Numbered from the stretch's first letter, positions 8,727 through 37,993 are shown. The stretch: 64,000 nt of DNA from Polyangiales bacterium (GCA_044229975.1 JBGARZ010000011.1:290784-354783); one strand, 5' to 3'. The notes: a model not told the origin generated them from the letters alone. Numbers and translations are program-made.

Positions 8727-10186
8727 GCCGTCGCGGAGGCGGTGTCCTCGGAGGCCGGGAGCAGCTCGCGGTAGACGGCGGCGTAGCGGCGGGCCGAGCG
8801 GTCCCACGCGTGATCGAGGCGCATCACCCGGCGGCGCAGCGACGCGAACTTCTCGGGCTGCGCGAAGGCCGACAGGCCCCGCGCGATGGCCCCGTAGAAC
8901 GCATCGGGCGTGAGCTCCTCGAACACGAAGCCGGTGCCCGTGTTGAGCGAGGCGTCGCAGTCGACCACGGTGTCGCGCAGGCCGCCCGTGTCGCGCACCA
9001 CCGGGATCGATCCGTAGCGCATGGCGTAGAGCTGCGTGAGCCCGCTCGGCTCGAAGCGCGACGGCACCAGGAAGAGGTCGGAGCCCGCGAAGATGCGGTG
9101 CGCCAGCGCGTCGTCGTAGTCGGCGCGGAAGGCCACCTTCTCGGGCATCTCCTTCGCCAGCGCCGTCATGGCGTCGGCGAGCTCGGGGTCACCCGACCCC
9201 TGCACCACGAGCTGAACGTCCTGCCGCAGGAGCTGCGTCACGCCCGCGAGGAGCAGGTCGACGCCCTTCTGCTTGTCGAGCCGCGCAACCATGCCGAGCA
9301 CGGCCGTCTCCGGTCGCTGCGGGAGCCCGAGCAGCTTCTGGAGGCCGGTCTTGCAGCGGGCCTTCGGCAGCGGGTCGAACACGTCGTAGCGGGCGGCGAT
9401 GTGCGGGTCGGTCGAGGGGTTCCAGACGCCCGGGTCGAGGCCGTTGAGGATGCCCGTGAGGCCCTTCGCATGCGCGCGGAGCACGCCGTCCATGTTGGCC
9501 CCGCCGGCCGCCGTGAGGATCTCCTTGGCGTACGTGGGCGACACCGTGGTCACGCGGTCGGCGTCGAGGAGCCCGGCCTTCAGCCACGACACCTTGCCGT
9601 AGAACTCGTAGCGCCCTGCGTCGGCCCCGAGGCCCAGCGCTTCGAGCGACTCGACGCCGAAGGTGCCCTGGTGGGCGACGTTGTGGATGGTGAGCACCGT
9701 CCGCACGTTGGCCAGCCGCGGGTCTTCCGCCGACGCCTGACGGAGCAGCGCGGGGACGAGCCCGGTGGTCCAGTCGTGCAGATGCACCAGCTCGGGAACG
9801 CGCGACTGCATCCGCATCCACGCGACGGCGCCCTTGCAGAGCAGGCCGAAGCGCCGCGCGTTGTCCTCGTAGGGGGCGCCCTCGCCGTACACCCCGGGGC
9901 GATCGCTGATGCCCGGCGCGCCCAGCAGCACCACCGTGACGCCCGACGGGAGCCGCGCCTCGTAGACCTCGGCGTCGACGGTCTCGGTGCCGATGGCGAC
10001 CTTCACCTTCACCAGTCGACGGGCGAGCGCGTGCTCGGCGGGGTCGATGCTGCCGTAGCGGAGCGAGAGGACGGTGACCTTGTGGCCGAGGGCGCGCAGC
10101 GCCTTGGGGAGCGCGCCGACGACGTCCCCGAGGCCGCCGACCTTCGAGTAGGGCACGACCTCCGGGCTGATGAAGAGGATTTCCAT
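8723..10186 (-). CDS. glgA: Glycogen synthase
   Basis: KVGGLGDV, HLHDW, TIHN, PSRFEPSGLTQLYAMRYG, TGGLRDTV. Confidence 0.97.
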   Translation of the reverse strand: MEILFISPEVVPYSKVGGLGDVVGALPKALRALGHKVTVLSLRYGSIDPAEHALARRLVKVKVAIGTETVDAEVYEARLPSGVTVVLLGAPGISDRPGVYGEGAPYEDNARRFGLLCKGAVAWMRMQSRVPELVHLHDWTTGLVPALLRQASAEDPRLANVRTVLTIHNVAHQGTFGVESLEALGLGADAGRYEFYGKVSWLKAGLLDADRVTTVSPTYAKEILTAAGGANMDGVLRAHAKGLTGILNGLDPGVWNPSTDPHIAARYDVFDPLPKARCKTGLQKLLGLPQRPETAVLGMVARLDKQKGVDLLLAGVTQLLRQDVQLVVQGSGDPELADAMTALAKEMPEKVAFRADYDDALAHRIFAGSDLFLVPSRFEPSGLTQLYAMRYGSIPVVRDTGGLRDTVVDCDASLNTGTGFVFEELTPDAFYGAIARGLSAFAQPEKFASLRRRVMRLDHAWDRSARRYAAVYRELLPASEDTASATA

Positions 10187-12769: not shown

Positions 12770-13258
12770 GCGGAGCCCGGCCGCATGGCGCGAATCTCCG
12801 CGAGCCAACGCGCGACCGTCGCCTCGAGCGATGGGTACGACGCGCTCAAGACGCGGCACAGCAGGCGTTCGAGGTTCTGGAGATCGTCGAGACCACCGAG
12901 GGTGGGGCCGTCCGCGCGCCAGGCGACCCCACGAAGCGCAACAGACTCCTCTGCCGCTCGCGAGAGACTCCACGTCTCGCCGCCAGGGTCGCGCGAGACC
13001 GACCACGGTGACGCGACCGACGAGAGGTCTCCAAGCGCGCCGTGGACCCGATCGACGAACGCACCCGGTTGGTCACCATCAGGGTCGAACACGAAGGCCA
13101 CGCGGTCGTATCGCGCCGATGGTGAGCGTCGCATCGCGTTCCAGGCGCAACCTCGCGCCGGAATTCCCGCCCGCAGTGGCGCCGAACAATCGCTTGCCGA
13201 TCTCGATCAACGCAGAGACGTCGTCGGGTCCTTCAACGAGGACGAGGCGCTGGCTCAC
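12770..13258 (-). pseudogene. Disrupted TOPRIM-like (DUF3226/DUF4435-like) partner of the upstream ABC-type ATPase
   Basis: GTG overlaps the ATPase stop; MSQRLVLVEGPDD stops early; a different frame carries VAFVFDPDG (DxD) and QNLERLL. 3' boundary approximate. Confidence 0.65.
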
Positions 13259-14307
13259 GCGCGGAGGTCCTGCGCGAGCTCCTCGCGAACGTAGCGGGCG
13301 CTCTCTCCGTTCACTACGGTCGCGCGCAAAACGCCCTCAGTCAGCCGGAGCCGATGCACGGTCGGCAGCGATCCACCGTCGCCCTCAGGAAGCTGCAGCA
13401 GCAGGTCGATGAGCTCCATGCTGTGGGTCGACAGAATCACCTGCGTACCCAGGGCGACCGCGTCGCGGAGCACGACGGCGAGCTCACCCAGGTAGCGCGG
13501 GTGCTGAAAGCTCTCGGGCTCTTCGAGCAGCACGACGCCACCGTCGCCCGCGTCGTAGACCTGCGCCGCGACCTCCAGAAAACGCTTGAAGCCGTCGCCC
13601 GCGAGGTAGGCCGGCACCGTCGGCGCGTCCCCGTGGATCGCGTGCAGCACGAAGTCGTCCTCGACCTTGAGGATGCGAAGATCCGTAAGCGTCGGCATCG
13701 CCCGTTGTAGCGAGCCGACCACTCGCGCCACGCGGCGCTGTTTCTCCAGCTTCGAGTAGGCGTCCTCCAGCGCGCCCGGCGCTCGCACCGCCTCGACGTC
13801 GACGAAGCTGCCTGGGAAGGGGGTGGTGACCTCCCCATGTTCCACATAGGTCTCCGAGAAGCGACGCGCCGAATCGACATGCGCGATGGACGAAGAGGAG
13901 TTGACCCGACCGGCCCACTCGAAGCTCGCCTGCGTCTGCAATGGTCGCATGGGCTCCGTCAGCTCATGTTCACGGGCCTCGCGAAGGAGATCAGGCTGGC
14001 GGATGGAGGGCAGCAACAAGGCGACGGAGCAACGCCGCCCATCAGGGCCGGTTGCTTCCACCAACGCGCTCTTCGCCGTCCCGTGCACCACATGCCGGGC
14101 CGCATGAAGCGCAGGCCCTCCGCGCCGCAGCAACGTCCGCCAGATGTTCGCCGCGTCGACCCCGGCGCTCACCGCCCAGATGGCCTCCAACACGGTCGAC
14201 TTCCCGCAGTTGTTGGGGCCTACCAGGATGCTCATCGGCGACAACCCCTCCAGGACGCCGTCTCGAATGCCGCGAAGGTTCTGGATCGTCACGCGCTCGA
14301 TGCTCAT
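13255..14307 (-). CDS. AAA_15/AAA_21 (ABC-like, OLD/AbiEii-type) ATPase
   Basis: IQNLRGI, Walker A GPNNCGKS, LAGDG signature, Walker B LLEEPE, STHS H-loop. Confidence 0.9.
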   Translation of the reverse strand: MSIERVTIQNLRGIRDGVLEGLSPMSILVGPNNCGKSTVLEAIWAVSAGVDAANIWRTLLRRGGPALHAARHVVHGTAKSALVEATGPDGRRCSVALLLPSIRQPDLLREAREHELTEPMRPLQTQASFEWAGRVNSSSSIAHVDSARRFSETYVEHGEVTTPFPGSFVDVEAVRAPGALEDAYSKLEKQRRVARVVGSLQRAMPTLTDLRILKVEDDFVLHAIHGDAPTVPAYLAGDGFKRFLEVAAQVYDAGDGGVVLLEEPESFQHPRYLGELAVVLRDAVALGTQVILSTHSMELIDLLLQLPEGDGGSLPTVHRLRLTEGVLRATVVNGESARYVREELAQDLRA

Positions 14308-22508: not shown

Positions 22509-23360
22509 TCAGCCGCCCATCTTCGCCAGCAGCGCCCTCAGCCGTGCGGTCTCCGCTTCTGCACTCTCCGCCCGGAGCCTGGCGTTTTCGGTCTCCGCCT
22601 CTGCACTATCGGCACGGGCCTCTGCACTCTCTGCGCGCACCTTCGCACTCTCGGCCTCCGCCTTCGCACTCTCGGCCTCCGCTTTCGCACGCTCAGCCTC
22701 CGCCGCGGCTCTCTCGGCCTCTGCCGCGGCTCTCGCTGCCTCCGCCTTCGCGCTCTCGGCTCGCTCCTCCGCGGTCGGCACCAGCACGTCTCCCCGCGCG
22801 CCCGTCGCCAGTCGCACGCACGGCTTGCTCTTGTCGCTCACCGCCCGCAGCCAGCACCCCAGCGCACGGCTCTGCACCCGATCACCCTGCGACGCCTCCA
22901 CCCGCACCAGCCGCCCTCGCACCCGCCGCCACACCTGCCAGCGCACCCGCTTGCGCGACCGCGACGTCGCCCATGGGTCGAACACCACGAGCTCCTTCGC
23001 CCCCATCGCCTCGTAGTCGGCCGGCGCCTCGTCGTAGTCCTTCTTCCAGTCGTCGCCAACGATCTCCAGCGCGAAGCTCGGCGCGTGGCCCTCCCACACC
23101 TTCCACGAGCTCACCGCCGGGATGTCCTGCGGCACGCCGTCCACCACGTAGACGTCCGGCGCGCGACGCACCCCGTTGTCGCCCTCCACCCAGTAGAAGA
23201 ACTGATCCGCTCCCGCGTGGGCCACCCGTCCCTCTGCCACCAACCACTGCGCGATCAGCGGGCGCAGAAGCTCCGCGATGAGCCGCTGGAGTTCGTGCTC
23301 CGCCATGTCATCGCTCTCCGGGTAATGGACCGCGTCCCACCGCTTTGCCGTCGCGACCAT
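22509..23360 (-). CDS. Uma2-family endonuclease with coiled-coil AE-repeat tail
   Basis: YPESDDMAE, APDVYVV, ALEIV, YEAMGAKELVVFDP; 21-bp tandem repeats at about 22550-22760. Confidence 0.9.
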   Translation of the reverse strand: MVATAKRWDAVHYPESDDMAEHELQRLIAELLRPLIAQWLVAEGRVAHAGADQFFYWVEGDNGVRRAPDVYVVDGVPQDIPAVSSWKVWEGHAPSFALEIVGDDWKKDYDEAPADYEAMGAKELVVFDPWATSRSRKRVRWQVWRRVRGRLVRVEASQGDRVQSRALGCWLRAVSDKSKPCVRLATGARGDVLVPTAEERAESAKAEAARAAAEAERAAAEAERAKAEAESAKAEAESAKVRAESAEARADSAEAETENARLRAESAEAETARLRALLAKMGG

Positions 23361-23459
23361 GACTCCCGATCTATCACACGCCGAGGCGCTCTGCTTAGCG
23401 CCCGCTGAAGCGCTCCAGGTACCGCTCGACGCACCGCCGCACCGTGGTCCCATCGGCGA

Positions 23460-26792: not shown

Positions 26793-29700
26793 ATGACCAC
26801 CCCAGTGGCTCCGAAGACCGCGCCGAGGGGCGTCGCGGACGCGATGAAGCGCATCGCCGCCTCGCGAGACGTAGCAGCCCGCGCCGATGACCTCCCGGCG
26901 CTCCCGGCCTTCGACATCGAAGCCATCCGCGTGCCGGTCGAGCGGCGGCTCGCGGAGCAGTTGGAGAAGATCCCGGCCTTCGCGAGGCTGCGCGACAAGA
27001 TCGACCCGCCGCCACCCGAGGCCGTGCGTCGACGGCTCATGGCCGAGGCCCTGCGGCTGTCGGAGTCCATGGCGCCGGACACCTACGCCTACGCCCACGC
27101 CGCGCGGCGAACGCTCAACATCGACCGCCCGCTGGAGATCTATCAATCGGGCGGCCAGGAAAACGCCGCGATCCATCTCATCGAGGAGCCCATCGTCCTC
27201 GAGATCATGGGGCGGCTCATGACCCTGCTCGACCGCGGCGCGGCCATCGCGGTCTTCGGCCACGAGTTTGGCCACTACCTCGCGCACGGTCCGTGGACGC
27301 CCATCGGCCGCACCGGCACCGCCGCCAACGTGCTGATGCGGATGGACGACCTCGACGACACGCTCGTGTCCGTCGCCAGCGCGCTCTTCATGGCGCGCGA
27401 GCTCACGGCCGACCGCGTCGGGATGCTCGCCTGCCAGGACCTCGCCGCCCACCTCCGCCTGGAGATGATCTGCACCACGTCGCTCCCCGGCGACGCGCTC
27501 ACCTGGGACACCGACGCGTACCTCCTCCAGTGTCGCGAGCTCATCGACGCCCTGCTCGAAGGCAGCGACCAGGCGGCGGGCAGCACGCACCCCGAGCACA
27601 GCGTGAGGGCGTGGGCCGCGTGGCTCTTCAGCGAGACCGCGGAGTACCGCGCGCTCACCGGCAAGGGCCCCGGCACCCGCGCGCTCGCCGACGTCGACGC
27701 CCTCATCGACCGCGTGCTCGCCGCCCCGTCGCTCGACTTCGACTGGAACATGTTCGAAGCGCCGCCCGTCGAGATGCACGAGTGCGCCCTCGCGTGCAGC
27801 GTGCTGGTCGCCAGCGCCGACGGCGACCTCGCCGACGTCGAGGCCGACGTCATCGAGAAGGTGTTCGCGCCGCTGGTCCCCGACTGGCGCTGGTACCTCG
27901 ACGTGGACAACGCCCGCGAGCGGCTCGCCGAGGTGTCGCCGGTGATGCAGTCGGTCGGGGGTGACGCGCAGCGCTCGCTCTTCCTGCTGCTCATGCACGT
28001 CGTCGCCGCGGACGGGAAGGTCTTCGAGGGCGAGGTCGACATGGTGCTCGCGCTCGGCGACTACCTCGGCCTGGGCCCCCTCTTCCATCGCCTCATGGGC
28101 GCCTCGCTGCGCGCGCTGGGGTTGTCCCTCCGCGTCGACGAGGAGCCCGCCGTGTCGATCCCGCTGCCGCCGCGCAGCGGGGAGGCGCTGGAGGCGCTGC
28201 GGGCCTTCCTCACCGGCGTCGTGCGGCGCCGGGGCGCGCAGACCACGCTGCGCCGACTGGTGCGCCTCGTGGGCGCGACGGACCCGACGCCGGAAGTACT
28301 GCGCGCCCTCACCGCGGAGATCGCCCGCGCCGGGGTCACGCTCGACCCGCCCTTCGATCAAGGCGATCTGGAGACGGAGCGCTCGCTGACGGTTCCGCAT
28401 GCGACCGTCGCCGCGGCCCCGGTGCGCGCCGCCCGCCGCGACGCGTCGCTGCTCCCCGAGGAGCGGGCCAACCTGCTGCGCGCCGTCACCGTGCTCCGCG
28501 ACCAGCTCGTCTCGGGCAACGGCAACAGCCCCGCCGTGCGCCTCCGTCGCCCGCGCGCCGGCCGCACCATGGACCTCCACGACCTGGAGTCCCTCTCCAC
28601 CGGCCTCGCCGAGCGCACGCTCGCGCAGCTCCGCGAAGGCCGCCGCGCGAAGCTCGTCGACGCCACCGAAGCGGGCGCCCACGCGGGGGGACAACGCGTC
28701 GCCGCCGCGCTCCTGCTGCTCGACCGCGACGCGAGGCAGCGCGTGGAGGAGACCGGCGCGCGCGACCTCGCAGTGGGCCATCCCTTCCTCGCGGGCATGG
28801 TGCAGGGCTACCTCGTGCGCGGCCCGCTGGTGCTGCACCCGGTGTCGCTGGAGCGCGACGCCCGCGGCGCCCGCGGCTTCGGGCTGGTGCCGTCCAAGGA
28901 CGAACCGCCGCAGGTCAACATGGCCCTCCTGCGACTGCTCTTCGCGAAGAAGGGCTACGCGTTTACCGACGCGCTCGCGGAGTTTCTCGACGCGGCGGCG
29001 GCCGACCCCGCGCGCAGCGTCGAGGCCATTCTGGAGACGCTCGCGCAGGTGGGGCTCACGCCGACCCGCGCGCCGAGCGCCCTCTCCCCGCTGCGCGACC
29101 GCGCCGAGGAGATCTTGCAGTGGAGCGGCGACCGCCTGGAGCTGGAGGAGTGCGCCGTGCTGGGCTTCTTCCCGCAGTCCGACAGCGACCTGCTGCAAGA
29201 CTACGACGCCCTGCTCACCGCGCTCGGCGACCCCACCGTCGACCCGGGCGCGCTGCTTGGGTGTGCCACCACGCTGCTGCCCGCCGAGATGCGCGCGGCG
29301 CTCCAGGGAGTTGAGCGCGCCTCGTCGCTCCCCTCCCCCGACTCGACCCTCGGGACGGTGCTCTACGCCGACCCCAGCCAGCGCGCGGTGCTGCGCCGCG
29401 CGGCCACCGAGCGGGCGCTGGTCATCGACGGACCGCCCGGCACCGGCAAGAGCCAGGTGATCGTGAACCTCGTCGCCGACGCCCTCGCCCGCGGCGAGCG
29501 CGTGGCGGTGGTGTGCGAGAAGCGCGCGGCCCTCGACGTGGTGGCGCAGCGCGCGCAGTCCGTCGGGCTGCGGCACTCCATGGCCCTCGTCCACGACGTG
29601 TTCGACGACCGCAAGGGGCTCTACGCCCAGCTCACCGCGCGCCTCGAAGAGACCACCGCGCGCACCCTCGACACGGCCGACGCGGCACGGGTCACCCAGG

Positions 29701-32660
29701 AGTCCCGTCGCATCGAGGAGGCGCTCGCCGCCCGCGGCGCGGCCCTGCGACAGACGCTCGACGGCAGTGACCTCACGGCGGGCAGGCTCCACGCGCTCGC
29801 GTCCGCCATCGAGGCGCCCGACGTCGAGCTGCCTGCCCCGATCGCGATGGTTCCCGAGCGCTCCCTCGAAGCGCTCGCCGACGCCCTCCTCGCGCTGCGC
29901 CCCTTCGCCGACCTCTACGCCCCCGGCGCCCGCTGGGCCGCGGTGCAACGCCCCTCCTACGCCGACCTCGACGCGCGCGCCGTCGTGGCCCTGCGCGACG
30001 CGCTCTCGCAGGCCCTCGCCGCCGCCCAGGAGCTGGAGTCCCTCGCCGCCCGCAGCCCCGTCACGCCCGTCGACGTGCACGCCGTTCGCGGGGCGCTCGA
30101 CGAGGCCGTCGCGCTGCAACCCGCCGTCGCGGCGGCGGCGCCGTCGGTGCTCTTCCCGGTGACCGAGGGGCTCGCGGTGCAGCCCGGGGCGTACGCCGGG
30201 GCGCAGGAGGCCATCACCGCGTGGCGCTCGCAGTACGCGCTGCTCGCCCGCCTGCCGGGTCGCGTCGAGCTGAGCCTGAGCCCGGAGGGGCAGCAGGCGC
30301 TGGCGGTGGTGCACGCGTGGGCGGGGAAGTTCGGGCGCTTCTTCGTGGGCGCGTGGTGGGGCGCTCGCAAGACGCTGCGCGAGTCGCTGATGCGCGCGTG
30401 GCCCGAGCGCTCCGCGGCGGGCTTCGACCGCACCTTCCTCGACGACCTGCGCGCCCACGTCGACGCGTCCAACGCGTGGCGGCGGCTCGACCACGCGCTC
30501 GCGGGCGTCGGGCTCTCCCACGCGCGACCCTCGACGGCCGCGGCGGGCGCCGAGGTGCTCGGTGCCCTGGAGGCGACGCTTCCCGTAGCGGGACGGCTCG
30601 CGGGCCTGAAGGCGGCGTTGGTGCGGGTGCGCGCGTGGCCCGACCCGCACGCGGGCGCCGCGCAGTGGGGCGCAGTGCTCCGTGACCGGCGCTCGTTGCT
30701 CACGCTCACCGAGCAGGCGCAGCGGGCCACGGCGGCGCTCGGAGGCAGGTTTCCGTGGCTGGGCGCGCAGCCCGCGTCGGGAGACCTCGCGGCGACGTTG
30801 CAGGCGTGGGCGAAGGACGGCGCGCGGCTCGCGGCGGGAGACCGCGCGATGGCGGAGGCCACGGCGATCGCGCCCGACGCGGCGGCGATGCTGGCGGTGA
30901 TGACCCGCGCGATGGGCGAGGCCGAGCCCAACCGCTGGCGCGAGGCCCTCGTGAAGCGATGGGCGCGGGCCCGCATCGCGCGGCTGGAGCGCTCCAACCC
31001 GGGGCTCACGGAGCGAGACCGTCCGACGGCGTGGGGAGAGGTCGACGCGGCGGGCGCGGCGCTCACTGCGCTGTGCGATCGCGCGACGGCGCTGGAGGCG
31101 CAGCGGGTGGCGGCGCGGCTCGACGACATCGCCGTGCTGCGATCGGCGCCCGCGCAGAAGGGCCGACGCAGGACGGCCGATCAGGCGACGCGCGAGGCGA
31201 TGCTCAAGGAGGGGCGCAAGCAGCGCAACGTGATGCCGCTGCGGGCCTTCGCGCGGCGCTTCGCGGGCGTCGGGCTGCTCGACGTGCTGCCGGTGTGGCT
31301 CCTCTCGCCGGAGACCATGACGGTGCTGTTTCCGCAGGAGGCGCTCTTCGACCTGGTGATCTTCGACGAGGCGTCGCAGTGCACGGTGGAGAGCGGGCTG
31401 CCGGTGCTGCTGCGGGCGCGCCGGGTGCTGGTGGTGGGCGACGAGAAGCAGATGCCGCCGTCGTCGTTCTTCACGTCGTCGGCGACGGGGGATACGGACG
31501 ACGAGGCGCCCGCGGCGAAGTCGGCGCGCGAGCTGCTGGAGGCCGAGTCGCTGCTGTCGCTGGCGCGCACGCGGCTGGAGCGCGTGGGCCTGGAGTGGCA
31601 CTACCGCTGCCGCCACGAGGAGCTCATCGCCTTCTCCAACCACGCGATGTACGAGGGGCAGCTCCGAACGATCCCGTCGACGGGCTCGCCCGCCGCGCCG
31701 CCGTCGATGCGCTGGGTCGCGGTGCCCGACGGCGGGTACGACGCCGGGCGCAACCTCCCGGAGGCGCGCGCGGTGGTCGAGGTGATCGCCGAGCTGTTGG
31801 CGCGGTCCGAGGCGCCGTCGGTGGGGGTGGTGACCTTCAACCTGCCGCAGCGGGCGGCGGTGCTCGACGCCGTCGACGCGCGACGCGGGGCCGACCCGGC
31901 CTTCGCGAAGCTGTGGGACGCGGCCATGGCCCGCGAGCGCGTCGACGAGCGCCCCTTCGTGAAGAACCTCGAGAGCGTGCAGGGCGACGAGCGCGACGTG
32001 ATCGTGTTCTCGACGGGTCACGCGCCGGTGGAGCGCAAGGTGGCCAACCGACCGCCGGAGCGGTACGTGCCCGCGCGCTTCGGCCCGCTGGGGCAGCGGG
32101 GCGGCGAGCGGCGGCTCAACGTGGCGATCTCCCGCGCGCGGACGGAGTGCGTGGTGGTGGCGTCGTTCGAGCCGTCGATGCTGTCGGTGGCGCGGGCGGC
32201 GTACGAGGGGCCGCGGCTGTTCAAGGCCTTCCTGGAGTTCGCGTGGCACACGTCCAACGGGCGGCGACCGCAGGCGCGGGAGATCCTGTCGCGGATGCGC
32301 GGGCCCGCGCAGGAGCAGCGCGCGGGGACGGCGCAGCCCACGGTGCGGGCGTGGCTCCCGTTGAAGGTGCAGGTGGCCGCGACGCTGCAAGGCATGGGGC
32401 TCGCGGTGGAGCTCGACGTCGGCACCTCGTCGGCGCGCGTGCCGGTGGCGGTGATCGACCCGCAGGACCCTGGACGCTACCGGCTGGCCATCCTGTGCGA
32501 CGAGGGCGACGGGGCGGAGGACGTCTTCGATCGCTGGGTGCACCGACCGCGGGTGCTGGGCCTGCGCGGCTGGCGGGTGATCACCGTCGACGCGCGGCGG
32601 TGGGACCTGAAGCGCCGCGAGGTGCTGGCGGAGATCGCCACGGCGCTGCGCGCACCGTAG
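26793..32660 (+). CDS. M48 metallopeptidase-TerB-DUF4011-like-SF1 (UPF1/DNA2-like) helicase-degenerate Vsr/MTES_1575-like fusion
   Basis: HEFGH, RELTADR, STHP; two ADG...E TerB motifs; GPPGTGKS, DEASQ, GDEKQ, HYR, VQGDERD, RLNVAISRAR. Confidence 0.9.
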   Translation: MTTPVAPKTAPRGVADAMKRIAASRDVAARADDLPALPAFDIEAIRVPVERRLAEQLEKIPAFARLRDKIDPPPPEAVRRRLMAEALRLSESMAPDTYAYAHAARRTLNIDRPLEIYQSGGQENAAIHLIEEPIVLEIMGRLMTLLDRGAAIAVFGHEFGHYLAHGPWTPIGRTGTAANVLMRMDDLDDTLVSVASALFMARELTADRVGMLACQDLAAHLRLEMICTTSLPGDALTWDTDAYLLQCRELIDALLEGSDQAAGSTHPEHSVRAWAAWLFSETAEYRALTGKGPGTRALADVDALIDRVLAAPSLDFDWNMFEAPPVEMHECALACSVLVASADGDLADVEADVIEKVFAPLVPDWRWYLDVDNARERLAEVSPVMQSVGGDAQRSLFLLLMHVVAADGKVFEGEVDMVLALGDYLGLGPLFHRLMGASLRALGLSLRVDEEPAVSIPLPPRSGEALEALRAFLTGVVRRRGAQTTLRRLVRLVGATDPTPEVLRALTAEIARAGVTLDPPFDQGDLETERSLTVPHATVAAAPVRAARRDASLLPEERANLLRAVTVLRDQLVSGNGNSPAVRLRRPRAGRTMDLHDLESLSTGLAERTLAQLREGRRAKLVDATEAGAHAGGQRVAAALLLLDRDARQRVEETGARDLAVGHPFLAGMVQGYLVRGPLVLHPVSLERDARGARGFGLVPSKDEPPQVNMALLRLLFAKKGYAFTDALAEFLDAAAADPARSVEAILETLAQVGLTPTRAPSALSPLRDRAEEILQWSGDRLELEECAVLGFFPQSDSDLLQDYDALLTALGDPTVDPGALLGCATTLLPAEMRAALQGVERASSLPSPDSTLGTVLYADPSQRAVLRRAATERALVIDGPPGTGKSQVIVNLVADALARGERVAVVCEKRAALDVVAQRAQSVGLRHSMALVHDVFDDRKGLYAQLTARLEETTARTLDTADAARVTQESRRIEEALAARGAALRQTLDGSDLTAGRLHALASAIEAPDVELPAPIAMVPERSLEALADALLALRPFADLYAPGARWAAVQRPSYADLDARAVVALRDALSQALAAAQELESLAARSPVTPVDVHAVRGALDEAVALQPAVAAAAPSVLFPVTEGLAVQPGAYAGAQEAITAWRSQYALLARLPGRVELSLSPEGQQALAVVHAWAGKFGRFFVGAWWGARKTLRESLMRAWPERSAAGFDRTFLDDLRAHVDASNAWRRLDHALAGVGLSHARPSTAAAGAEVLGALEATLPVAGRLAGLKAALVRVRAWPDPHAGAAQWGAVLRDRRSLLTLTEQAQRATAALGGRFPWLGAQPASGDLAATLQAWAKDGARLAAGDRAMAEATAIAPDAAAMLAVMTRAMGEAEPNRWREALVKRWARARIARLERSNPGLTERDRPTAWGEVDAAGAALTALCDRATALEAQRVAARLDDIAVLRSAPAQKGRRRTADQATREAMLKEGRKQRNVMPLRAFARRFAGVGLLDVLPVWLLSPETMTVLFPQEALFDLVIFDEASQCTVESGLPVLLRARRVLVVGDEKQMPPSSFFTSSATGDTDDEAPAAKSARELLEAESLLSLARTRLERVGLEWHYRCRHEELIAFSNHAMYEGQLRTIPSTGSPAAPPSMRWVAVPDGGYDAGRNLPEARAVVEVIAELLARSEAPSVGVVTFNLPQRAAVLDAVDARRGADPAFAKLWDAAMARERVDERPFVKNLESVQGDERDVIVFSTGHAPVERKVANRPPERYVPARFGPLGQRGGERRLNVAISRARTECVVVASFEPSMLSVARAAYEGPRLFKAFLEFAWHTSNGRRPQAREILSRMRGPAQEQRAGTAQPTVRAWLPLKVQVAATLQGMGLAVELDVGTSSARVPVAVIDPQDPGRYRLAILCDEGDGAEDVFDRWVHRPRVLGLRGWRVITVDARRWDLKRREVLAEIATALRAP

Positions 32661-37012: not shown

Positions 37013-37993
37013 TCAGCGGTCGGCTTCGCGCTCGGCCAGGGCGCAAGCGCGCGCTTCGAGGGCCGCACGAACGACGGCCTTGGTGTGACGAGCGATCTGC
37101 CGCGCGTAGGCGGGCTCCTCGCGGGCGACGTCCTGCACGACGCGGCGGACGAGGCGGTCGATGCGCTCGTCGCGCGGGCACTGCCAGCGGCCGCCCTCTG
37201 CGAGGTGCTGCCGCGCGTGGGCGAGCCGCTCGCCGTTGACGACGCGCGCCGCGAAGCCCTCCGCGGTGTCGTCGCTGCCCGGCGTCTCGTCGAGCGCCTC
37301 GCGGCGGTTGGGGTGCTTGTGCTTGGCGACGAGCAGACGACCGGCGCCGTCTCGGAGTGCCGGGTCGCTCCAGATCACGACGCCCTCGTGGGTCGCGTCC
37401 GCGTGACGGGACGAGGCCCCGCGCGACCCGGCGTGCGCCGAAGGGCGATCGAGCAGCGCGTCGAAGCGTTCGGGGTCGGGCGCGCCGCGGTAGAGGCAGG
37501 GCGCGAGGATGAGGCCGGTCTGCGCCGCGAGGTCGCACAGCGAGGGGAGGCGACGCACCGACCCGGCGTCGTCGACGTGGTCGAGCGCGTGCGACCACCC
37601 GAGCCACGCGTCGCCGACCGTGGCCGCGAAGAGCACGAAGTGCGCGGACGGTCCGTAGAGGAAGCCCGTCGCCTGGATGCCGCGACCGCAGGTCTCGCCG
37701 TACAGCGTGAGGTGGTCGGGGAGCGCGCGCGCGACGTCGCGCAGTGACTCGAAGCGCACGTTGGCGACGAAGCCGGCGCGCAGCTCGGGCTGGCAGAAGC
37801 CCTCGTCGCCTTCGAGCAACGACCGCCCGCCGACGACGAGCTGTTCGACGCGGTGGAGGTCGCGCGGGACACCGACGCGGGTGTTGGAGCCGTCGATCTT
37901 TTCGAGGCAGACGACCTCGCGGGCATGGTGAACGGCATCGGCCTCGCCTCGATACGCGGCGATGCAGGGAAACACAGCAGGAACGAACGTCAT
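37013..37993 (-). CDS. RNA ligase, Rnl2-like
   Basis: Motif I EKIDGSN, III LYGE, IV EGVVI, V AKHK, helical C-domain. Confidence 0.82.
   Translation of the reverse strand: MTFVPAVFPCIAAYRGEADAVHHAREVVCLEKIDGSNTRVGVPRDLHRVEQLVVGGRSLLEGDEGFCQPELRAGFVANVRFESLRDVARALPDHLTLYGETCGRGIQATGFLYGPSAHFVLFAATVGDAWLGWSHALDHVDDAGSVRRLPSLCDLAAQTGLILAPCLYRGAPDPERFDALLDRPSAHAGSRGASSRHADATHEGVVIWSDPALRDGAGRLLVAKHKHPNRREALDETPGSDDTAEGFAARVVNGERLAHARQHLAEGGRWQCPRDERIDRLVRRVVQDVAREEPAYARQIARHTKAVVRAALEARACALAEREADR

Follow-up and report, generated by a model that had tools for sequence, protein, structure and literature searches.

The window analysed here, a stretch of 64,000 nucleotides from a Polyangiales bacterium, carries a single stop-free open reading frame (26793..32660, + strand) encoding a protein of 1955 aa with the domain order M48 protease, TerB, winged helix, DUF4011, Upf1-like SF1 helicase (interrupted by a large insertion) and MTES_1575 nuclease-like domain. 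Throughout the clade of proteins that share this fusion, the pair of acidic residues typical of the nuclease family is never complete, and the predicted zinc-protease site is complete in nearly all members. The clade-wide loss of nuclease residues, the presence of an HPx4R plug in the protease and the winged helix emerged from this analysis. With somewhat less than even confidence, we favour the reading that the gene by itself forms an anti-phage system, akin to PDC-S37, Prometheus and Hhe, whose output is a gated protease; protein cutting would then likely replace DNA cutting as the weapon in a one-gene anti-phage system.

Third-position GC stays at 0.90-0.98 over the full length of 26793-32660, which is therefore the coding frame; a 2176-aa antisense frame, devoid of any Pfam match, was rejected as the shadow of a high-GC gene. 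The frame and every motif position given by the sequence-only reading (HEFGH, ELTAD, STHP, Walker A, DEASQ, RVPVAV and AILCDE) were confirmed. In a Pfam scan, DUF4011, AAA_11, AAA_12 and MTES_1575 scored above their cut-offs, and two domains fell under theirs: M48 reached 16.7 of the 20.3 bits required and TerB 21.1 of 24.4 bits. No transmembrane segment is predicted in the 1955-aa protein, the top 19-residue hydropathy mean being 1.62. The gene is single copy in its 10.0-Mb, ~71% GC source genome, and its GC is mostly slightly higher than that of the flanks, so that it bears no sign of recent foreign origin. Sigma-70-type promoter sites and terminator sites were looked for and none was found.

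The N-terminal part of the protein, aa 1-536, was modelled with AlphaFold2 (mean pLDDT 84.8, pTM 0.82) and compared with 48,161 solved chains using VIA-align; the top rows were TerB folds followed by M48 proteases; Foldseek on the same 536-aa model returned nothing at E 0.001, whereas VIA-align did give matches. A weak Pfam match, fold rows and conservation together define a soluble M48-family zinc metalloprotease domain at aa 45-310 (26925..27722, + strand, as for all features below), whose closest folds are 3c37 (Z 8.2-8.5, rmsd 4.7, 161 aligned), ZMPSTE24 (Z 7.7-8.0) and BepA (Z 7.6-7.7). The M48 Pfam cut-off is passed by relatives, for example P0021 at 33.3 bits. The HExxH motif reads HEFGH (H157, E158 and H161; 27261..27275) and is followed by ELTAD (27399..27413), containing the third zinc ligand E203 and the plug-holding D207, the predicted equivalents of E201 and D205 in BepA. 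These five residues are invariant in 120/120 aligned proteins (119 listed matches and the query, P0002 being excluded as near-self), and among 158 module-bearing proteins they are found in 155 (H157), 155 (E158), 157 (H161), 155 (E203) and 158 (D207). Near-invariant columns make up 23% of the M48 domain, 10% of the nuclease domain and 2% of the helicase insertion.

HEFGH, ELTAD and STHP had been read together as the full M48 zinc and catalytic set. This proved correct for HExxH and the third ligand; STHP (27582..27593), in contrast, overlaps the start of an HPx4R motif (H266, P267 and R272; 27588..27608), the predicted equivalent of H246, P247 and R252 in BepA, and thus belongs to an inhibitory plug. 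Among the 158 module-bearing proteins, H266 is kept in 151, P267 in 156 and R272 in 158. In bioRxiv 10.64898/2026.07.01.735768, HPx4R is described as an M48 autoinhibitory plug in which His is the fourth zinc ligand and is held by an Asp-Arg-Pro triad, and the spacing of the plug residues is the same in BepA as in our protein. Since this plug is conserved, the protease is predicted to be latent; by analogy with M48 biology, H266 would fill the fourth zinc site and keep the enzyme off until displaced.

The TerB domain (27756..28127) carries twin acidic motifs with D343, E350, D407 and E414, each present in 120/120 proteins, and it matches the folds 2ou3 (Z 9.5-10.1, rmsd 4.4, 137 aligned) and 2h5n, so that the twin-motif TerB domain proposed by the sequence-only reading is upheld, though its Pfam score is under cut-off. 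Such twin acidic motifs have a metal-binding role in TerB. TerB and DUF4011 had been described as meeting at a junction; a further winged-helix-like domain (aa 464-536, 28182..28400), identified by secondary structure, a middling CtsR row (Z 5.7) and other winged-helix rows, stands between them. After a linker at aa 537-551 comes the DUF4011 region (~aa 556-830, 28458..29282; PF13195, 32.9 bits), for which the fold comparison of a 960-aa model gave no separate row. This model of aa 1-960 reached a pTM of 0.66 with low confidence in the linker between protease module and helicase, and hence it does not show a fixed protease-helicase contact.

The helicase is split by an insertion into a first part (29358..29642), with the Q motif and Walker A (29430-29453), and a remainder (31110..32282), with the Walker B motif DEASQ (31365-31379) and motifs III-VI. 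The Upf1-like SF1 motifs Q, I, II and III-VI are all intact, as had been claimed, and they form the most conserved stretch of the protein. The insertion (~470 aa, 29670..31082) is poorly conserved, with a mean pairwise identity of 0.29 and near-invariant columns at 11/471 positions. The nearest solved relatives of the helicase, which would act as the sensor, are IGHMBP2, Sen1, Dna2 and Upf1.

The protein ends with an MTES_1575 (Vsr-like) nuclease-fold domain (32358..32648; Pfam 42.4 bits), including the motifs RVPVAV (32436-32453) and AILCDE (32487-32504), in which Pro replaces Asp at 1884 and Leu replaces Glu at 1901. REase motifs point to these two family-conserved acids, and we take both positions to be the catalytic ones. 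A search with aa 1430-1955 among 1.84 billion representatives gave 14,434 matches, of which the best 150 were taken and sorted by architecture; the alignment comprised 248 proteins in which the helicase part and the nuclease part are both present, and the residue counts omit 26 partial proteins and four N-terminally truncated members of the fused clade. Both nuclease acids are kept in 0/135 fused proteins versus 78/83 full-length relatives outside the clade, and unfused homologues thus do not share the degenerate nuclease. Outside the fused clade the two positions are 96% and 98% acidic; within it, position 1901 is acidic in 0/135, position 1884 is Asp in 21 and Pro in 109, and a further three positions typical of the family, namely 1858, 1915 and the His, have also been lost. 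The domain had been called apparently dead. The loss of both family acids agrees with this description, whereas newly conserved acidic and His/Gln residues do not: an acid occupies position 1904 in 99% of fused versus 6% of unfused proteins, D1903 is present in 94%, position 1917 is His or Gln in 135/135 (H1917 in 80%) and Q1860 is found in 135/135. Given these clade-specific residues, the domain has not simply decayed.

Residue migration occurs in this nuclease fold, and the C-terminal domain could accordingly be rewired and not dead, D1903, E1904, E/D1913 and H1917 forming a shifted metal site in a helicase-nuclease that has the protease as a second arm. We consider this improbable, despite the conservation of the new residues and the retention of the domain, above its Pfam cut-off, in nearly all members. 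Indeed, both core acids and the three other family-typical positions are lost, Pro stands in place of the metal-binding Asp in 109/135 proteins, and the domain is under weaker constraint than its counterpart in unfused relatives, being 0.09-0.16 less conserved in the fused clade at matched helicase identity. Moreover, two Nannocystis-type members have acquired a separate DEDDh exonuclease: P0018 and P0019 (~2240 aa) carry this extra RNase_T-family domain N-terminal to the protease (82 bits in P0019). Another addition is found at the opposite end in 36/135 fused proteins (e.g., P0035, P0093 and P0021), as a C-terminal extension of 110-153 aa, which comprises a linker rich in proline plus a small conserved domain, winged-helix-like by eye and without a Pfam name in those scanned.

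The fusion is shared by a whole family. Searching aa 40-450 against proteins of 1075-3422 aa, with 7987 candidates scored, gave 196 long relatives, and among the 120 matches listed nearly all carry DUF4011, AAA_11/12 and MTES_1575; the fusion is hence no singleton, and an assembly artefact was rejected as its source. Four low-depth contig sets yielded only short pieces, including near-identical ones that cover 27963-28357 and 28398-28548; none of those listed extends across the full TerB-DUF4011 junction, and they add little to the evidence. The family is present in Myxococcota, Proteobacteria and Opitutae; among the matches listed, named carriers are Polyangium, Nannocystis, Sandaracinaceae, Rhodanobacter, Fulvimonas, Dokdonella and Opitutae, including the cultured strain Fulvimonas soli DSM 14263, Polyangium fumosum and a Nannocystis sp., and the closest named relatives belong to Polyangiales and other Myxococcota. 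The distribution is patchy. A fused-type module was detected in 14/400 genomes of the phylum (E below 1e-40), ten of the 14 sitting in open frames of 1939-2167 aa, and an orthologue with 82-87% identity is present in 4/8 other genomes of the genus. Two of these orthologues have long flanks, and their locus differs from that of the window; in genome G401, the upstream gene is present without the helicase, and its downstream 1.5 kb has no match to the window. In three assemblies (L006:9218-16006, L026 and G418:C144), the fused gene is frameshifted or split.

In a FastTree phylogeny restricted to the second part of the helicase (129 rows, with one distant match as the root), the fused proteins group with the four truncated ones in a single clade of 46 (support 0.998), in which the Asp-bearing members are nested. 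The fused proteins also form one clade, with an SH-aLRT of 100, in a quick tree of the M48-TerB module, for which the careful search is unfinished. Gain of the module and loss of the nuclease residues map to one branch and are therefore one event, so that their correlation amounts to n=1. Among unfused relatives, P0270, P0222 and P0241 have intact nuclease residues and, in place of the protease module, long N-terminal extensions, with TPR arrays in the two scanned; this helicase family thus has a slot of variable content at its N-terminus. The proteins P0054, P0055 and P0056 (1562 aa) have lost the winged helix, DUF4011 and the Walker A region internally and keep M48-TerB joined to the insertion and the second helicase half; they may represent one sample or an assembly error.

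The protease site is retained in 153/158 module-bearing proteins and missing in five (P0157, P0161, P0177, P0184 and P0137), in which the nuclease residues are also gone. Four of these five are full-length, have all helicase motifs intact and occupy four separate places in the tree, hence the helicase can persist without a protease site; the two of them placed in the M48-TerB tree have long protease branches there and ordinary branches in the helicase tree. The frame L057:6134-11905 is similar to P0157. DNA-protein crosslink proteases clear proteins bound to nucleic acid, and here too the protease might be an accessory that clears bound proteins from the path of the helicase, or cuts its own chain to release or silence it, leaving the helicase as the working end of a defence protein. 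The four full-length members fit such an arrangement, as does the strong conservation of the helicase motifs, and self-cleavage could take place in the flexible linker (aa 537-551); in addition, in the older giant relatives described in PMC3710099, a peptidase-like domain is combined with this same helicase-Vsr core, next to a separate HEPN effector. We nevertheless judge it rather unlikely, because the site is kept in 153/158 proteins and because a helicase whose associated nuclease residues are gone has, alone, no obvious lethal output.

Among known systems, the sequence-only reading had likened the protein to Hhe. The DUF4011-helicase-Vsr core in one gene is indeed common to both (NF042953, PDLC02194), but the likeness is loose, since the PDC-S37 and ProA profiles outscore Hhe: PADLOC gives 519 bits for PDC-S37 (best) and 259 bits for Hhe, and NCBIfam gives 553 bits for ProA (best match, cut-off 1500) and 334.7 bits for Hhe (cut-off 2000). 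Hhe lists a HEPN domain; none was detected here by Pfam at E 0.01, the N-terminal 536 aa being M48, TerB and winged helix. Regarding PDC-S37 (PDLC05009), aa 850-1952 match model positions 285-1338 of 1550 (~68% of the model), a best stretch that leaves out the M48-TerB-winged-helix module, and the nearest unfused relatives score 478-725 bits on this profile. According to bioRxiv 10.1101/2024.01.29.577857, whose main text does not name PDC-S37, PDCs are predicted from their position within BREX, DISARM or type I RM. Prometheus ProA (NF058533) is likewise a single gene with a DUF4011 and a helicase with an insertion, according to PMC13700489; its DUF4011 is N-terminal whereas ours is internal behind the protease-TerB module, which ProA does not have, and its C-terminal DUF3320 is absent here, our protein ending three residues past the nuclease-like domain (1952 vs 1955). 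The protein would work like the single-gene helicase systems PDC-S37, Prometheus and Hhe and, without HEPN or DUF3320, is a member of neither Hhe nor ProA.

A peptidase-like domain joined to a helicase-Vsr core has a precedent in the HEPN-transglutaminase-SF1-Vsr-wHTH giants (PMC3710099), which contain HEPN and transglutaminase domains; our protein has instead a zinc protease with a plug, and its nuclease residues are lost. TerB is present in the anti-phage systems Shango, Bunzi and Dionysus, alongside a helicase in Shango, but these are multi-gene systems without an M48 protease, and the Shango helicase is of DEAD/DEAH type. With BepA, HtpX, ZMPSTE24 and BlaR1, the protein shares the fold, HExxH, the third-ligand Glu, the Asp and HPx4R, whereas these enzymes are membrane or periplasmic proteins and ours lacks a transmembrane segment and is fused to a helicase. 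No description of an M48-TerB-helicase fusion was found in a literature search whose scope did not extend to the 2012 Ter-domain survey, the original Hhe and Prometheus papers and the PDC supplements, which could mention it; the architecture is apparently undescribed.

In the mechanism that we propose, the helicase, the winged helix and the former nuclease would bind phage-derived single-stranded DNA, RNA or an R-loop, and the latent protease would be switched on once the helicase engages this invader nucleic acid. ATP-driven movement or clustering might release the plug, TerB could provide ligand- or metal-dependent control, and the freed protease would cut a host or phage protein, halting the infection; both the coupling of protease to helicase and the protein target are steps that we infer. 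The M48 family is known from membrane and periplasmic quality control. That an immune helicase which senses nucleic acid has taken up a cytoplasmic member as its effector and pulls the His plug off the zinc, the ex-nuclease serving as a non-cutting binding domain, is a distinctly tentative proposal. If true, it would amount to a one-chain immune switch combining sensor, motor and protease, and to a new way to unlock an M48 protease, with plug release taking place away from the membrane. It would also represent a natural effector exchange within the large DUF4011-helicase-nuclease defence family to which PDC-S37, Prometheus and Hhe belong, and offer a handle on the role of TerB in defence systems. 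As the nuclease residues are gone, the helicase trigger should be readable as protease activity, making the trigger of the family directly testable.

The same two-domain module exists in myxobacteria as stand-alone M48-TerB proteins of ~400-450 aa, with 23-31% identity to the fused module, in which the helicase is absent and the neighbours are non-defence genes. Several of them pass both Pfam cut-offs, and on the quick tree they form a group apart from the fused copies. The ancestor, a PDC-S37-like helicase-nuclease, probably captured a stand-alone M48-TerB gene that already existed. A separate terB gene adjoins the stand-alone gene in 3/8 loci, and defence neighbours were found by Pfam scan in 0/8. 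A literature search found no paper on such proteins, which are widespread (L033-L047, L060-L066 and P0152) and in which the protease and plug motifs are complete. In L037, L041, L043 and L044, there is a small SF1 helicase gene at most two genes away, and in L058:8114-10969 (- strand) M48-TerB is the C-terminal portion of a longer frame whose N-terminal portion has no name.

The genomic context was surveyed at 24 loci of relatives, with up to four neighbours a side, a simple gene caller and Pfam, hand-picked candidates being submitted to PADLOC; two pairs each represent a single locus in related genomes, and at four loci one flank is short. Defence genes adjoin the fused gene at 9/24 loci, a raw count that lends contextual support to a defence role of the family, and 15/24 have no clear defence neighbour. 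By Pfam and PADLOC, the neighbours are Wadjet (L005), BrxC of BREX (L008), Qat (L009), type I-G Cas (L013), a DruE-like helicase with UvrD and an integrase (L014), a methylase and a MORC-like ATPase (L016), MzaC/Z1 (L017), HipBA and BREX (L049) and type I RM (L050). In L013, from Fulvimonas soli, the gene is flanked on its own strand by cas8g on one side and cas4-cas1 on the other, with a 38-repeat array downstream of it. No conserved partner gene was found among the up to four neighbours a side of the loci scanned.

It is also conceivable that the protein has no anti-phage function and serves in stress or genome maintenance, the TerB-gated protease and the helicase handling damaged nucleoprotein complexes. 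The donor M48-TerB module lies in non-defence contexts in 8/8 loci, the neighbours in the window are mostly unrelated genes, the M48-TerB part has no match in plasmid or phage collections, and one study (bioRxiv 10.1101/2022.11.11.516204) lists a large DUF4011 gene as a core marker shared by all its P. aeruginosa isolates. This explanation has a low likelihood in our view, given that the fused gene occurs in 14/400 genomes of the phylum and in half of the genus, at differing loci, that it is inserted in a type I-G operon in F. soli and adjoins eight other defence loci, and that its nearest profiles are all defence families. We retain the anti-phage protein with a gated protease as the preferred reading.

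Two features of individual loci can be added. In L013, an exact 37-nt duplication (9761-9797 and 9834-9870) covers the start codon of the gene; its 73-nt spacing equals the period of the array, yet the DNA between the copies is not CRISPR repeat. The window locus is not a defence island: next to the gene lie a predicted lipoprotein-like gene, one for a Uma2-like nuclease whose tail is a coiled coil (22509-23453, - strand) and an RNA ligase gene (37013-37993, - strand), and 12 kb off lies an AAA_21 ATPase (13255-14307, - strand) that resembles PDC-M38A, AriA and HEC-01A.
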